A DNA stretch of 31,225 nucleotides from Candidatus Altarchaeum sp. Lineage in GTDB: Archaea; Altiarchaeota; Altiarchaeia; Altiarchaeales; Altiarchaeaceae. Made by a program: the position numbers and the translations under genes. Where the stretch lies: the NCBI GenBank assembly GCA_018260615.1, contig JAGWDQ010000068.1, positions 1-31,225 of the forward strand. The letters are read 5' to 3'. The notes under the pieces are model-generated. The model was not told where the DNA came from. It searched no databases and worked only from the letters and a program-made list of their open reading frames with translations. Positions 10,170-15,568 of the stretch are shown one piece after another (position 1 is the stretch's first letter; every line of letters starts with the position of its first letter).

Positions 10170-11000
10170 ATGAGTGATATACTGAACGACGGAATAAATT
10201 TCATAATCAATGAATTCACACGGGTTGAATATACTTGGTTTAATACGATTATGTTTGGAATTGTGCTAATCATCGCCTTGTTCCTTGTTATAAAACTAAT
10301 GAAGAAATGGAATATAGAGATAGATAAAAATTTTGTTTTTGCTTTACTTCCGTTTATCCTTTTTGGTTCCACGATGCGGGCGTTGGCAGATGCAGAAATT
10401 TATCCGAACAGACCGGATGTGTTGGCGTTTTTCTTCATTGCCCCGGGGATATATTTTACAATATTCCTGATTACAATTGCATCTTTGCTTATCGGGCTTT
10501 ACATTTTTAAGAAAAAATATTATAAATTTATGCTTGTTGCAGGATGTCTTTTGTTCGGATTAAATTTAGTCCTGATTGCGATGTTTTTGTATTCTCATTC
10601 TGCAACTGCAAATTTTGGCGTGTTTGTTGTTTTTTTGATTTTTGCTATGTGCGTAATTGTCATTTATGCACTTATGAAATTAAATTTTTTTAAATTTTCA
10701 AATTTTTTAAGATATGAAAAGAATTACATTATCGTATTGGCACATTTATTTGACGCTTCAACAACATACATCGGAATTGCCTTCTTTGGTTACTTTGAAA
10801 AGCATGTGCTTCCGTCTGCGGCGATTGAAATTTTTTCACCTGCAATTATGTTTGTGTTAAAGCTTATTGTAATTCCAGCCCTTTATTTTATAGACCAGAT
10901 AGATGACAAGACAACGAGAAGGATGATTAAAATCGTGATATTTATACTTGGAATTTCTCCGGCAATAAGAAATTTTACCAGAATTTTGTTAGGGGTCTAA
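10170..11000 (+). CDS. DUF63-family archaeal membrane protein
   Basis: YTWFNT, PFILFGSTMRALAD, APGIYF, AHLFDASTTYIG, EKHVLP, LGISPAIRN. Confidence 0.85.
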   Translation: MSDILNDGINFIINEFTRVEYTWFNTIMFGIVLIIALFLVIKLMKKWNIEIDKNFVFALLPFILFGSTMRALADAEIYPNRPDVLAFFFIAPGIYFTIFLITIASLLIGLYIFKKKYYKFMLVAGCLLFGLNLVLIAMFLYSHSATANFGVFVVFLIFAMCVIVIYALMKLNFFKFSNFLRYEKNYIIVLAHLFDASTTYIGIAFFGYFEKHVLPSAAIEIFSPAIMFVLKLIVIPALYFIDQIDDKTTRRMIKIVIFILGISPAIRNFTRILLGV

Positions 11001-11002
11001 AA
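10951..11002 (+). repeat. Left direct repeat of island (3' end of the DUF63 gene)
   Basis: 52 bp matching 15370-15420 with 2 substitutions and 1 indel; the 23-bp core AGAATTTTGTTAGGGGTCTAAAA (10980-11002) is identical to 15398-15420. Confidence 0.9.
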
Positions 11003-11176
11003 TTTGGGCTTAAAAATTACATTTTAAAATTTAAATTTAAAATTTAAGCAAGGATTGACTATATTTCCTAAAAAGATGCCTGCACAAATGCAAAGCAAAA
11101 CCCCCGGATCAAGTATTTCTTAAAAATAAGTATCCAAAATTCGATCTTTTTTATTTTACTTCTTCAAGCCAATGGC

Positions 11177-11263
11177 GTATAACGGTTCGAGCATATCTGA
11201 AGTCCAGCTTGCTAAATTTGGGCGAAATGCTGTAGGCACGGAGTCAGATACGCTCTGTTAAGT
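11177..11263 (-). other. attC-like recombination site 1
   Basis: Minus strand: ACTTAAC (RYYYAAC) A GAGCGTATCTGA ... TCAGATATGCTC GAACC GTTATAC; 87-bp imperfect palindrome downstream of the HEPN gene. Confidence 0.75.
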
Positions 11264-11326
11264 GACCCAAGCGATAGTAAGGGCGGGCAACCCAAAGGGT
11301 TGCGAGGAGTCGGAGCAATTGCATAT

Positions 11327-11761
11327 TTACATACCCTGTGATTTTAATATGGTTTGAGTTTTAGCAAGTAATTTTTTGGCGTTTTCTACAGTGATTTTGG
11401 CACTCTCCTCATCATAAGTCAGGCCATAATCTGCTTCATGCCTAAGGTCCATACTCATCTCAAGATTATCTGCAAACTCATGTTCCAATTCATTTGTTCT
11501 GACGTATAACTCCCTAATGGCAATTAGCAGACAATTGTGGCTTTTTTCTCTATATCCCTTTTTAAAGACAAGTGCTTTTGCTGCGTGGAACATTGAGTAG
11601 TATGCCTGCACTGATGCCCATTTATAATCCTCATTATGCAGACTTTCTTCTGCTCGCATCAAATCATATTCAGCTCCATATAATTCCTTTTCTATCATTT
11701 CGTCAGAGGCATTTATCCGAATAAGGCGTCTTTCCTCTATGCATTTTTCAAATTCGTTCAT
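11327..11761 (-). CDS. HEPN-domain protein (toxin of an MNT-HEPN pair)
   Basis: AYYSMFHAAKAL, KSH, LRHEADY. Confidence 0.88.
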   Translation of the reverse strand: MNEFEKCIEERRLIRINASDEMIEKELYGAEYDLMRAEESLHNEDYKWASVQAYYSMFHAAKALVFKKGYREKSHNCLLIAIRELYVRTNELEHEFADNLEMSMDLRHEADYGLTYDEESAKITVENAKKLLAKTQTILKSQGM

Positions 11762-11762
11762 T

Positions 11763-12317
11763 TTAATCGCGCCACAATACCATTCCTTTATTCACTTCCG
11801 CATAAAAAGCAATATCATTATTCTTCAAATTAACGAAGCCGTGGGGCGATAATATTATTGGTTTAAGTTTTCTGCCGCCCACGCTTGCGCCTTTCAAAAT
11901 TTTCTTAATCTCTTCCACATCCTCTGTTATTACCAGGATGTCTATGTCGCTATCCAACGTATCCTCACCCATCGCACAACTTCCAAATAAAATTATTTTC
12001 TTGGACATATTTTTAATATCCTTTAGAATATCATTCAGTTCTTGGACATTTATGAATATCTTGAAATGTGCTATGGCAGGATTTCCAATCCTTATTTTGT
12101 AGTACTGATTCCGTCCGCTCTTTTCCATGTCGACTAATTCCATGTTAAACAATTCTTTCAAAACTTTATGGCATCCGCCGAGGCTATTTTGATTCAATCT
12201 TGCGATTTCGCGCACGTAATATTGTTTATTCGGTGAGCGTGATAAATATGCCAATACCTTGATTGCCAGCGGACTCAAATTCAATTTTTTGAACATATGT
12301 TCGTTATTTTGAACCAT
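11763..12317 (-). CDS. HTH-fused minimal nucleotidyltransferase (MNT antitoxin)
   Basis: N-terminal wHTH (YYVREIARL) plus LFGSCAMGEDTLDSDIDIL (GSx10DxD). Confidence 0.88.
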   Translation of the reverse strand: MVQNNEHMFKKLNLSPLAIKVLAYLSRSPNKQYYVREIARLNQNSLGGCHKVLKELFNMELVDMEKSGRNQYYKIRIGNPAIAHFKIFINVQELNDILKDIKNMSKKIILFGSCAMGEDTLDSDIDILVITEDVEEIKKILKGASVGGRKLKPIILSPHGFVNLKNNDIAFYAEVNKGMVLWRD

Positions 12318-12423
12318 GATAATACCTTTTTCTTGTTCTTATAAATCCATCTGTTGATATTCTTCAAACCATTTAATGGGTTCTTTCATTTTATTACCTC
12401 AAATATATTAAAGCTGCTATTTC

Positions 12424-12477
12424 ATATAACGGTTTGCGGCTATGCGCCGTTTTAATGGCGTATAGCCGCTGTTAGGC
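12424..12477 (-). other. attC-like recombination site 2
   Basis: Minus strand: GCCTAAC A GCGGCTATACGCC ATTAAAAC GGCGCATAGCCGC AAACC GTTATAT; begins 6 nt after the ATPase stop codon. Confidence 0.88.
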
Positions 12478-12483
12478 GGCGTA

Positions 12484-14013
12484 TTAACTTATTTTGTTTT
12501 TGATAAAATCTCTCATTAGTTTTATTGATTCTTGGAGTTGTTCAAAGTTGAATCTATTATTTAAAGTATTTTCAGGATGATGAATTTGGTGTCTGATAAA
12601 TTCACTTAACACTATATTATCTTCTTCAATTATTTTTCCATTTTTTTCACGTTTATACTTTAAAGTGTGTTTGCCATTTTTATACTCATTTAGTTTACCT
12701 TCACTTTCGATGTACCCATAAAGTTCGTTATGATATTCTTCGTCAGCTTCTCCAAAAGCTAAGAAATTAACTTCATTTAAAGATTGATATGGTAATTTAT
12801 TTTTTTCAATATTTATTACTTCAACTATTCCATTTTCTTTTTTAAGGAGTTTTAATTGCTCAAATTCTAAAAGTTTAACAATTGCGGGACTATGAGTAGT
12901 TAATATTATTTGAGTGTTATTAGCATTTGACAATGATTTAAAAGCTTCGATTAACATTCTTTGATGTTTAGGATGCTGGGAGGTTTCTGGTTCTTCAATT
13001 CCATAAATGATATTAGGGACATTTTTTTCCTGTTGTCTTCTTTCTGCTTCAGCTCTAAAAAAATTGAGTAATACAAGACGCTTTATTCCACTACCTCGCT
13101 TATTGATAGGTATATTTTCATCTCCCGAAATCGAAACACCTTTAAATACATCTACCCATTTTAAATTCTCTGCTTGTGGAATGACAGGATTAAGGCTATT
13201 AGCAACTTCTGGGTTCATTTCCCGGAGTTTTTTCAATGTTCTATCAGAAACCTCTTTCAATTTATTCTCTACTTCATTGGCAATTTCATTAAATTTTATT
13301 CTAATATTTTCATTGCTTAATATCTGTTTTACTGCTTCCTTTAAAGGGTCTTGTATTTCATTATCACCATCACTATTCTTACGGTCAGACTGAAAAAGAG
13401 CATATAAAGGCATATAGTTTTTAAGCTGTTCCCAAATATTTTTAGCATCTTCTTTTGATACATCAATCTCAATTTCATTTAATTGCAAATTATTAAAATT
13501 ATTCCAAATTTCTTTTCTGATTACAGCGTTTTTAGTTTTGTCTTCACAATCTAATTTATTTGTTTCAAGTATCTTTTTAAGTTCGGTATTTTTCTTTAAC
13601 AATAAATCTGAGCAAGCTGGATTAGTTGGGTGTTTTGCTTTAATGAAAACTTTTTCTTTACCACCGTTGGGATATTTTTTAATTATTTCTAACTGCCCAT
13701 CGGAATTAAGAAGAAATTCATCTTTTAGGTTTGTAGGATTTGTTGCGTCTATAGTAATAGTATCCGGCAAATCATCAAAAACCACAGATATTTTTATTTC
13801 TTCATTTCCATCGTCTCTGGCGAATTTATTTACATCATTTGAATCAATTTTAATTGTGCCTTTGCCTTCATTAAAGAAAATATCCAATGCTTCTAATATT
13901 GACGATTTACCAATATCATTTTTACCTACAAAAGTGGTTAAATTACCAAATTCAAAAACAGTCTCTTCTTTGTAAGCTCTAAAGTTCTCTAGTTTTAGTT
14001 TTTTTATTTTCAT
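12484..14013 (-). CDS. ABC/AAA_15-type (OLD-like) ATPase with a C-terminal RxxxxH HEPN-like domain; putative defence protein on a gene cassette
   Basis: Walker A GKNDIGKS, signature RGSG, Walker B/D-loop IEEPETSQHP, H-loop TTHSP; no TOPRIM motif seen; C-terminal IRHQIHHPEN. Confidence 0.8.
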   Translation of the reverse strand: MKIKKLKLENFRAYKEETVFEFGNLTTFVGKNDIGKSSILEALDIFFNEGKGTIKIDSNDVNKFARDDGNEEIKISVVFDDLPDTITIDATNPTNLKDEFLLNSDGQLEIIKKYPNGGKEKVFIKAKHPTNPACSDLLLKKNTELKKILETNKLDCEDKTKNAVIRKEIWNNFNNLQLNEIEIDVSKEDAKNIWEQLKNYMPLYALFQSDRKNSDGDNEIQDPLKEAVKQILSNENIRIKFNEIANEVENKLKEVSDRTLKKLREMNPEVANSLNPVIPQAENLKWVDVFKGVSISGDENIPINKRGSGIKRLVLLNFFRAEAERRQQEKNVPNIIYGIEEPETSQHPKHQRMLIEAFKSLSNANNTQIILTTHSPAIVKLLEFEQLKLLKKENGIVEVINIEKNKLPYQSLNEVNFLAFGEADEEYHNELYGYIESEGKLNEYKNGKHTLKYKREKNGKIIEEDNIVLSEFIRHQIHHPENTLNNRFNFEQLQESIKLMRDFIKNKIS

Positions 14014-14035
14014 AATTTTATCCTCTTAATATGCC

Positions 14036-14159
14036 GCCTAACTGATTATATCCGCAGTTATTGCGTATATCATCCTGATTTAGCATGATATCTGCATTGC
14101 ACATATGACTCCAATTTGACAGCATATCCGCAGTTATTGCGTATATTCTCATTTTAGAT
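14036..14159 (-). other. Degenerate attC-like (or attI-like) site 3 supplying the GTTAGGC core of the ATPase cassette
   Basis: Minus strand: ATCTAAA ATGAGA ATATACGCA ... TGCGGATAT AATCA GTTAGGC; contains a 23-bp direct repeat ATATCCGCAGTTATTGCGTATAT at 14048-14070 and 14124-14146. Confidence 0.65.
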
Positions 14160-14390
14160 GTTCTTGTTTATCATTTGACATCAATGTACATCCTCGTCTC
14201 TAAGTTTTAGAGATGCCTTAGGTGGGCTTTTTATTAACGATGGATGGAATGCACGAGTATTATCCACCGGCACAGCATGTGATTTCTTAGTGCACATATT
14301 AAATAAAATAAAATATCAATAAAAATTTCTCTTTATATATTATTGATAAATACAAATATAATTAAAAATACAAATGCAAATATTCTGTAA

Positions 14391-14433
14391 TTTCAAAACA
14401 CGTTTTTAAAATCTCCGAACTATAGTAAGATGA
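14391..14433. repeat. REP-like repeat (family A, degenerate)
   Basis: TTTCAAAACACGTTTTTAAAATCTCCGAACTATAGTAAGATGA. Confidence 0.55.
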
Positions 14434-14593
14434 TTATTAAAATTTAGCAACAAATCAAAATTTATAACATCAAAATTTATAAAACATCATATCCAAAAAT
14501 TAATTTGTTTAAAAATGTCGGATTCACCCCGACTTAAGAGTAAAATTTCTTACATTTAATTTTCAAAAGATTTAATAGAAGAGTATAAATAAA

Positions 14594-14938
14594 ATGCACG
14601 CAACGAACTTCAGAAAGAAAACATTTATAGTTGGGATAAAGGATGATATTTTGAAATGCCTTAATGAAGTAGGAGTATCTGTAAAAAAGGTAATACTTTT
14701 TGGTTCAAGAGCAAGAGGGGATTACACAAAACACAGTGACTATGACTTTCTTATAATTACTGAGAAGAGATATACATTCAAAGAAAAGATAGAAATTTCA
14801 GGTAAGATTAGAAAACTTTTTGTTCGGTTTCATATTCCAAGCGATATAATAATAAAATCCGATGATGAAGTAGAATACCTTAAAGATAAGATCGGAAGTG
14901 TTATAAGGTTAGCATTAAAAGAAGGCATTACAATATGA
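14594..14938 (+). CDS. Minimal nucleotidyltransferase (MNT antitoxin)
   Basis: VILFGSRARGDYTKHSDYDFL. Confidence 0.9.
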   Translation: MHATNFRKKTFIVGIKDDILKCLNEVGVSVKKVILFGSRARGDYTKHSDYDFLIITEKRYTFKEKIEISGKIRKLFVRFHIPSDIIIKSDDEVEYLKDKIGSVIRLALKEGITI

Positions 14939-15321
14939 TGGATGAATACATTAAAAAGTGGATTATAAAGGCATTAGAAGACTTTAAAGTTGCAAAACAC
15001 GAATTATCTTTCCCGGATGAAGAAGTTTCTACGGGTGCCGTCTGTTTTCACTGTCAACAGGTTGTGGAAAAATTATTGAAAGCATATCTCATATCTAAAA
15101 ACAGGGATTTTGGACGAACTCATGATTTGACATATCTTGCAGATTTATGTTCAGATTATGATAAAGATTTCAAAAAGTTCGATTTGGAAGAGTTAACATA
15201 TTATGCCGTAGAAATCAGATACCCTGATGAATTTTACATTCCCTCTATTGAAGAAACAAGAGAATGTTTTGAGATTGCTTCAAAGGTTAAGGACTTTGTT
15301 TTCCACAAGATGGGAATATAG
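14935..15321 (+). CDS. HEPN-domain protein
   Basis: WIIKALEDF, CFHCQQVVEKLLKAYL, RTHDL, YAVEIRYP; 4-nt overlap with the MNT gene. Confidence 0.9.
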   Translation: MMDEYIKKWIIKALEDFKVAKHELSFPDEEVSTGAVCFHCQQVVEKLLKAYLISKNRDFGRTHDLTYLADLCSDYDKDFKKFDLEELTYYAVEIRYPDEFYIPSIEETRECFEIASKVKDFVFHKMGI

Positions 15322-15369
15322 TCATTTTATTAACTTTTTGCACAGGTAAATTTTTATAGCCCGTTTTCA

Positions 15370-15420
15370 GAATTTCTCCAGCAATAAAAATTTTACGAGA
15401 ATTTTGTTAGGGGTCTAAAA
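15370..15420 (+). repeat. Right direct repeat of island (orphan copy of the DUF63 3' end)
   Basis: Matches 10951-11002, including the GTCTAA stop codon. Confidence 0.9.
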
Positions 15421-15472: not shown

Positions 15473-15568
15473 GCTCATGAAAATCATATACTTTATAAAA
15501 CTGTGAAAAATTTTAAATTATAAAAATTTAGAAACAAATCAAAATTTATAATATTAAATTTTATTAAA

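Follow-up and report, generated by a model that had tools for sequence, protein, structure and literature searches.

Among the frameworks on which prokaryotic immunity is most commonly built are proteins that join an ATP-binding cassette (ABC) ATPase to an effector (OLD, Gabija, PARIS, Septu, PrrC and RloC); the AriB effector of PARIS is a tRNase. P2 OLD is an ABC sensor in which destabilisation of the tetramer opens a TOPRIM tRNase (bioRxiv 10.64898/2026.07.10.737580), and PrrC and RloC each keep a HEPN anticodon nuclease in check through their ABC ATPase (PMC3710099). We describe here a gene of Candidatus Altarchaeum sp. (assembly GCA_018260615.1) located at positions 12484..14013 of contig JAGWDQ010000068.1. 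The stretch of 31,225 nucleotides from which these positions are counted is the window analysed, and all features of the gene and of its cassette given below lie on the minus strand. The uninterrupted open reading frame (ORF) encodes 509 residues, an OLD-type ABC ATPase followed by an unannotated C-terminal domain. We hold it about evenly balanced that the product is a one-protein defence module of the OLD family, in which TOPRIM would have been replaced by a compact four-helix domain of HEPN type, about 100 residues long.

An AAA_15-type ATPase, a helical insert and a single-polypeptide architecture are common to this protein and the class-1 OLD proteins (P2 Old, Ts OLD, and E. coli plasmid and prophage homologues); the latter end in a TOPRIM nuclease, whereas here an unrelated helical domain of about 100 residues is found instead. 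With PrrC and RloC the protein would share, by analogy, the logic of an N-terminal ABC ATPase regulating a C-terminal RNase domain with an R/H motif in one polypeptide. However, the ATPase of PrrC and RloC is of the Rad50/SbcC type (AAA_13) and not of the OLD type (AAA_15), no sequence similarity was detected between their C-terminal domains and ours, and RloC has a coiled coil and a CxxC zinc hook, both lacking here. PARIS (AriA/AriB) and Gabija (GajA/GajB) have related ABC ATPases, yet each consists of two genes with a TOPRIM effector, whereas the present system is a single gene with neither an AriB DUF4435-TOPRIM nor a GajB UvrD-like helicase alongside. An N-terminal ABC ATPase is likewise fused to a HEPN domain with an Rx4-6H motif in the 'ABC-HEPN' protein ERFG_01251 (PMC3710099). 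That HEPN domain is described as classical and near the MNT-associated ones, whereas ours, compared with it by description only, is without profile similarity to MNT-associated HEPN; the two groups might overlap, but the absent similarity to MNT-type HEPN argues against it. No paper describing an OLD-type ATPase with a HEPN-like tail was found. Judged by analogy, the family would work like PrrC/RloC and class-1 OLD, yet it fails the defining features of both, having no TOPRIM, no AAA_13 and no zinc hook.

An OLD-family ABC ATPase without TOPRIM

The ATPase module covers residues 1 to ~405 (12799..14013), with a helical insert at ~218-272, as delimited by the AAA_15 match and by predicted secondary structure. 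Pfam AAA_15 is the best match, spanning residues 1-379 from end to end (E 6.8e-91), and AAA_13 is not among the Pfam matches. The preliminary description, made from the letters of the sequence, had reported intact ABC motifs, and all those it quoted are present and conserved in alignments of 106-119 homologues (two of our alignments are named A1 and A2). In the Walker A motif GKNDIGKS (residues 30-37, 13903..13926), at least 93% of the 119 sequences keep G30, N32, G35 and K36, the last without exception in A2. The signature RGSG (residues 306-309, 13087..13098) has an invariant G309, with G307 and S308 kept in at least 88%. The Walker B/D-loop segment IIYGIEEPETSQHP (residues 336-348, 12970..13008), which contains EEPETSQHP, shows an invariant E341, and P342, E343 and H347 are kept in more than 98%; H374 of the H-loop THSP (residues 373-376, 12886..12897) is also invariant.

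The structural comparisons point to the same family. The full-length AlphaFold model (predicted local distance difference test, pLDDT, 86; predicted template modelling score, pTM, 0.78) gave as best Foldseek match the OLD protein of Thermus scotoductus (6p74, E 3.5e-14), followed by GajA, retron Eco8 and PtuA. The PADLOC check advised at the outset returned the AriA model on top (268 bits, residues 1-379), then Old and many GajA models. A short segment of the ATPase insertion (~135-175) had been likened to a SAP/HeH motif, a resemblance that was not confirmed: no Pfam SAP or HeH family matches it even at E 10. The AlphaFold model shows a helix-linker-helix there (helices 142-151 and 162-172).

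No TOPRIM model matches the 509-residue protein in the Pfam scan, in line with the lack of a TOPRIM acidic motif noted beforehand, though the nearest relatives of another architecture do carry this domain. These relatives are class-1 OLD proteins of 565-595 residues, found on plasmids and in E. coli prophage regions; they are 39-44% identical to our protein over residues 1-396 and fully divergent beyond, and they carry either Pfam PF20469 (OLD-like_TOPRIM) or a TOPRIM motif of the VEGPND type (EGxxD) in the BLAST alignment. The claimed absence of a zinc hook, which sets the protein apart from RloC, was likewise borne out, the translation of the ORF being without CxxC. The protein is thus an OLD-family ABC ATPase without TOPRIM, and the simplest reading of the alignments would be an effector swap on a class-1 OLD scaffold, in which the C-terminal domain took the place of TOPRIM.

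The family is annotated merely as 'ATP-binding protein'. A word-indexed search brought up more than 7000 related ATPases; the best 120 of these are all ~505-510 residues long and 67-88% identical to the archaeal protein, and they come from Bacteroidota, Ignavibacteriota, Spirochaetota, Bdellovibrionota, Pseudomonadota and others. A genome scan yielded 80 loci (47-88% identity) in at least 12 bacterial phyla. When the C-terminal 130 residues were searched against 1.84 billion representatives at 50% identity, 420 clusters were found (E <= 0.001), and, short or N-terminally chimeric entries aside, the domain stands at the C-terminus of ABC ATPases of ~450-560 residues. Two more divergent ATPase subfamilies among these clusters also carry it. 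Apparent fusions to other N-termini (P0127-P0144) proved to be copies of the same ATPase cut short at differing breakpoints, and were rejected as cases of domain shuffling. Among them, the metagenome proteins P0127-P0138 have near-identical C-terminal portions of the ATPase in frame with unrelated N-termini, the many breakpoints being scattered over reference residues 108-361; chimeras made during assembly may account for them, or the gene may often be disrupted by insertions in one gut lineage.

The conserved C-terminal domain and its predicted fold

The C-terminal domain (residues 407-509, 12487..12795), delimited with AlphaFold on alignment A1 and with the full-length model, is the best-conserved part of the protein outside the ATPase motifs in the 119 full-length sequences, to which the following counts also refer. 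The preliminary description had pointed to a helical C-terminus of ~100 residues with the motifs EYHNELYG and R474-HQIH-H, and both are indeed present. It had also made its HEPN-like reading depend beforehand on RxxxxH being conserved among homologues; R474, H478 and H479 (motif region 12559..12594) are invariant (119/119). At position 475, directly after the arginine, 92 sequences have H, 24 have N and 3 have D. Beyond the histidine pair, P480, E481, N482 and N485 are kept in more than 97%, and S411, E414, N416, H428, E430, Y432, S496, M500 and R501 are nearly invariant. The EYHNELYG motif (residues 426-433, 12715..12738), placed by conservation and by the model, lies in the second predicted helix, and its H428 and E430 are candidates for a second, acidic element of an active site.

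AlphaFold on a 99-sequence alignment of the domain gave a model with pLDDT 89, and the same elements appear in the full-length model. Four helices are predicted: H1 (412-420), H2 (425-437), H3 (469-478), which ends in R..HH, and H4 (490-508). The loop PENTLNNRF separates H3 from H4, and between H2 and H3 there is a poorly conserved insert (441-468) made of a short helix and a beta-hairpin. The folds of His-Me finger/HNH and GIY-YIG nucleases were considered and rejected, since neither His nor Tyr is conserved in the hairpin and the two adjacent histidines are part of a helix.

The HEPN superfamily has been described as a four-helix unit in which inserts are frequent between helices 2 and 3, with an Rx4-6H motif whose residue after the R is "typically polar (mostly N, D or H)" (Anantharaman et al. 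2013, PMC3710099). R474...H479, followed at position 475 by just such a polar residue, conforms to this motif, and the predicted four-helix layout with its insert between H2 and H3 matches the published description. HEPN-clan folds were strongly over-represented among the top weak structural matches of the domain, the best of them, itself weak, being the HEPN endoribonuclease Las1/LAS1L. The catalytic motif of Las1 is RHxhTH, of the same kind as RHQIHH here.

With hhalign, neither the HEPN proteins of the window itself nor a 120-sequence alignment of PF05168 gave any signal, and Foldseek of the domain against PDB and BFVD returned no significant match; re-alignment of the top Foldseek matches with VIA was uninformative. 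Other searches brought no named relative: Pfam has no match to residues 380-509, even with the threshold relaxed to E 10, the domain searched by itself is without a match in PADLOC and PHROGs, the matches of the family profile to the sequences of solved PDB structures were at chance level, and ESM Atlas returned only unnamed fragments of the same family. Thus, of the HEPN-like claim, the motif and the predicted helix layout stood, but a profile match to classical HEPN and a significant structural match did not come forward. On balance we regard homology of the C-terminal domain to HEPN as likely, if only mildly so.

A one-gene integron cassette of bacterial origin

The gene had been described as cassette-borne, and the expected elements were found on both sides of it. 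An attC-like site, an imperfect palindrome of 54-60 nt, lies at 12424-12483 with the R'' box GCCTAAC at 12477-12471 and the R' box GTTATAT at 12430-12424; its L'' and L' arms pair with one mismatch, and the site folds as a DNA hairpin (-16 kcal/mol, z -2.95). At the 5' boundary the core G|TTAGGC (14036..14042) is located 30 nt upstream of the ATG and is complementary to the R'' box of the same cassette. The 10-nt sequence GTTAGGCGGC, likewise 30 nt upstream of the start codon, recurs as its reverse complement from 6 nt past the stop codon, where the palindrome opens. Bacterial homologues show the same arrangement, in which GTTAGATGCC precedes the ATG by ~37 nt, GGCATCTAAC follows the stop at a distance of 16-20 nt and the attC has GTTAGGC or GTTAT at its end. 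The exact layout was found at six loci (L013, L053, L056, L057, L060 and L062) and, by eye and with mismatches, at about 6 more; reverse-complement matches within the same locus numbered 21 out of 77, compared with a mean of 7.3 for shuffled pairings. In the cassette copies, the boundaries leave room for the ATPase ORF alone. The ATPase gene is therefore a one-gene integron cassette. The assembly (87% complete) has no match to IntI over the TIGR02249 cut-off, the sole hit being Xer-like and missing the IntI-specific region; since no integron integrase was found there, the array is CALIN-like (cluster of attC sites lacking integron integrases). Just upstream of the cassette boundary there are two exact copies of the 23-nt quasi-palindrome ATATCCGCAGTTATTGCGTATAT (14048-14070 and 14124-14146, 76 nt apart); these may represent a decayed attC or a leader site resembling attI.

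The neighbourhood of homologues was examined, as had been proposed, by an all-against-all comparison of the ORFs within 4 kb of 80 homologues, and no neighbour is conserved across these loci. The largest neighbour family, found at 7 loci, belongs to type I restriction-modification. In a Pfam scan of the 138 immediate neighbours no family exceeded 5 occurrences (HsdS 5, MmeI methylase 3, integrases 3, ResIII 3); HsdR, PIN, Fic and several type II restriction enzymes were also seen. The immediate neighbours are thus enriched in restriction-modification genes, PIN, Fic and integrases. At four loci (L064, L068, L070 and L079, from Campylobacterota and one Deltaproteobacteria metagenome-assembled genome) the order is hsdM-hsdS-gene-hsdR, which is the position of prrC, likewise between hsdS and hsdR, in the PrrI locus. 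No AriB-like or GajB-like partner was found in the window, where the neighbours are MNT and HEPN genes, or in the 80 homologous loci.

The rRNA genes of the assembly score best with archaeal models, and a DUF63 gene flanking the cassette matches archaeal control genomes only; McrA was not found in the assembly. The cassette sits in a stretch of 4.4 kb (~11003-15369), on either side of which the 3' end of the DUF63 gene occurs as a 52-nt direct repeat (10951-11002 and 15370-15420, copies 88-97% identical). This stretch is an insertion, because in G001, a genome of the same genus, the site is empty, DUF63 being followed after ~60 nt directly by the fructose-6-phosphate aldolase (fsa) gene. No integrase lies inside the insertion. 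The C-terminal domain was not found in the 60 related archaeal genomes searched (3 of the same genus and 57 of the same class). In a quick maximum-likelihood tree, throughout which the phyla are thoroughly mixed, the archaeal protein clades with a Bacteroidota and a Melioribacter (Ignavibacteriota) sequence (SH-aLRT 99). The acquisition by an archaeon put forward earlier is thus upheld by the bacterial nesting, the negative search of archaeal relatives and the empty site: the gene came into the archaeal chromosome from bacteria within the 4.4-kb insertion.

Other features of the island deserve mention. Two MNT + HEPN pairs, resembling toxin-antitoxin genes, flank the ATPase gene at 11327-12317 (minus strand) and 14594-15321 (plus strand). 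The downstream pair is of the wHTH-MNT kind (PADLOC PDC-M05A, E 7e-23) and appears to be a two-gene cassette of its own, ending in a second attC-like site at ~11177-11256 (R'' ACTTAAC, R' GTTATAC). The duplicated segment of the DUF63 repeat contains GTTAGGG, which resembles the integron core site. A 52-nt segment of the fsa promoter region also occurs twice (14433-14484 and 15517-15568, 88% identical), the copy inside the island standing ~110 nt upstream of the divergent MNT gene. This arrangement suggests that recombination with sequences of the locality assembled the island or rearranged it.

Putative mechanism, rival explanations and significance

In the mechanism that we infer, which runs from HEPN homology through ATP gating and RNase activity to a defence phenotype, the ATPase with its helical insert would serve as sensor and switch, by analogy with OLD, PARIS, PrrC and RloC. 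A nucleotide-dependent rearrangement or a change of oligomer would uncover the C-terminal domains or bring them together in pairs, and their R-[H/N/D]-x-x-H-H motif could then cleave RNA (tRNA, rRNA or mRNA) without metal. Such cleavage might stop translation and abort the infection. The protein would work alone, because the cassettes hold room for one ORF only, and this is the strongest argument on the point. Since the C-terminal domain looks like a HEPN RNase, an antiviral suicide switch consisting of one gene is the most likely reading. In its most complete form the proposal is tentative, a little short of an even chance in our estimate: a C-terminal domain that is either an unrecognised HEPN family or a new small nuclease fold would have replaced TOPRIM on an OLD-type ATPase, giving a self-sufficient, ATP-gated RNase immune module of one gene that spread as an integron cassette over at least 12 bacterial phyla and crossed into Archaea.

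The main rival to HEPN homology is that the C-terminal domain is catalytic through a new, small nuclease or phosphoesterase fold with a His/Glu-rich, possibly metal-binding site. Its residues would be H428, E430, H478, H479, E481, N482 and N485, and the substrate may be DNA, as for TOPRIM in Gabija and in the Vibrio class-1 OLD. We find this unlikely, since the grammar R-[H/N/D]-x3-H, with its place where the third helix of a four-helix unit ends, is exactly that of HEPN, and since HEPN-clan folds are so strongly over-represented among the top weak matches; against its His-Me finger form there is also the beta-hairpin with no conserved His. Less probable still is a non-catalytic domain, namely a sensor, a nucleic-acid-binding or an oligomerisation module, the protein then acting by ATP-dependent binding or through an unlinked effector. 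The invariant residues are polar, of the catalytic type and better conserved than most of the ATPase, and the need for a partner would fit poorly with a gene that travels by itself in a cassette of one ORF and lacks any conserved neighbour.

A different question is whether an antiviral role exists at all. The gene could be an addiction module of the cassette or island, toxin-antitoxin-like stabilisers being frequent in integron cassettes, or it could have a cellular function like the cell-cycle role of Cran1, which shows that archaeal OLD-family proteins can be non-defensive (PMC12796447). However, the gene is sporadic, was not found in the 60 archaeal relatives, and is scattered horizontally over at least 12 bacterial phyla beside restriction-modification genes; these are hallmarks of accessory defence and not of a core function, and they make a non-antiviral role very unlikely in our view. 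We thus keep the one-gene antiviral module with a HEPN-type effector as our preferred reading.

If true, this reading would add to the OLD scaffold an effector swap from TOPRIM to a HEPN-like domain, which fits recent reports of OLD and PARIS as tRNases. With 420 clusters at 50% identity, counted on the C-terminal domain alone, the family is large; it is also unusually conserved across phyla (55-88% identity), and a single gene of 1.5 kb is small enough for direct tests. Archaeal integrons and cross-domain transfer of cassettes have already been described (bioRxiv 10.1101/2022.02.06.479319), and the present locus is a well-delimited case of an integron cassette by which a putative defence gene passed from bacteria to the chromosome of an archaeon.
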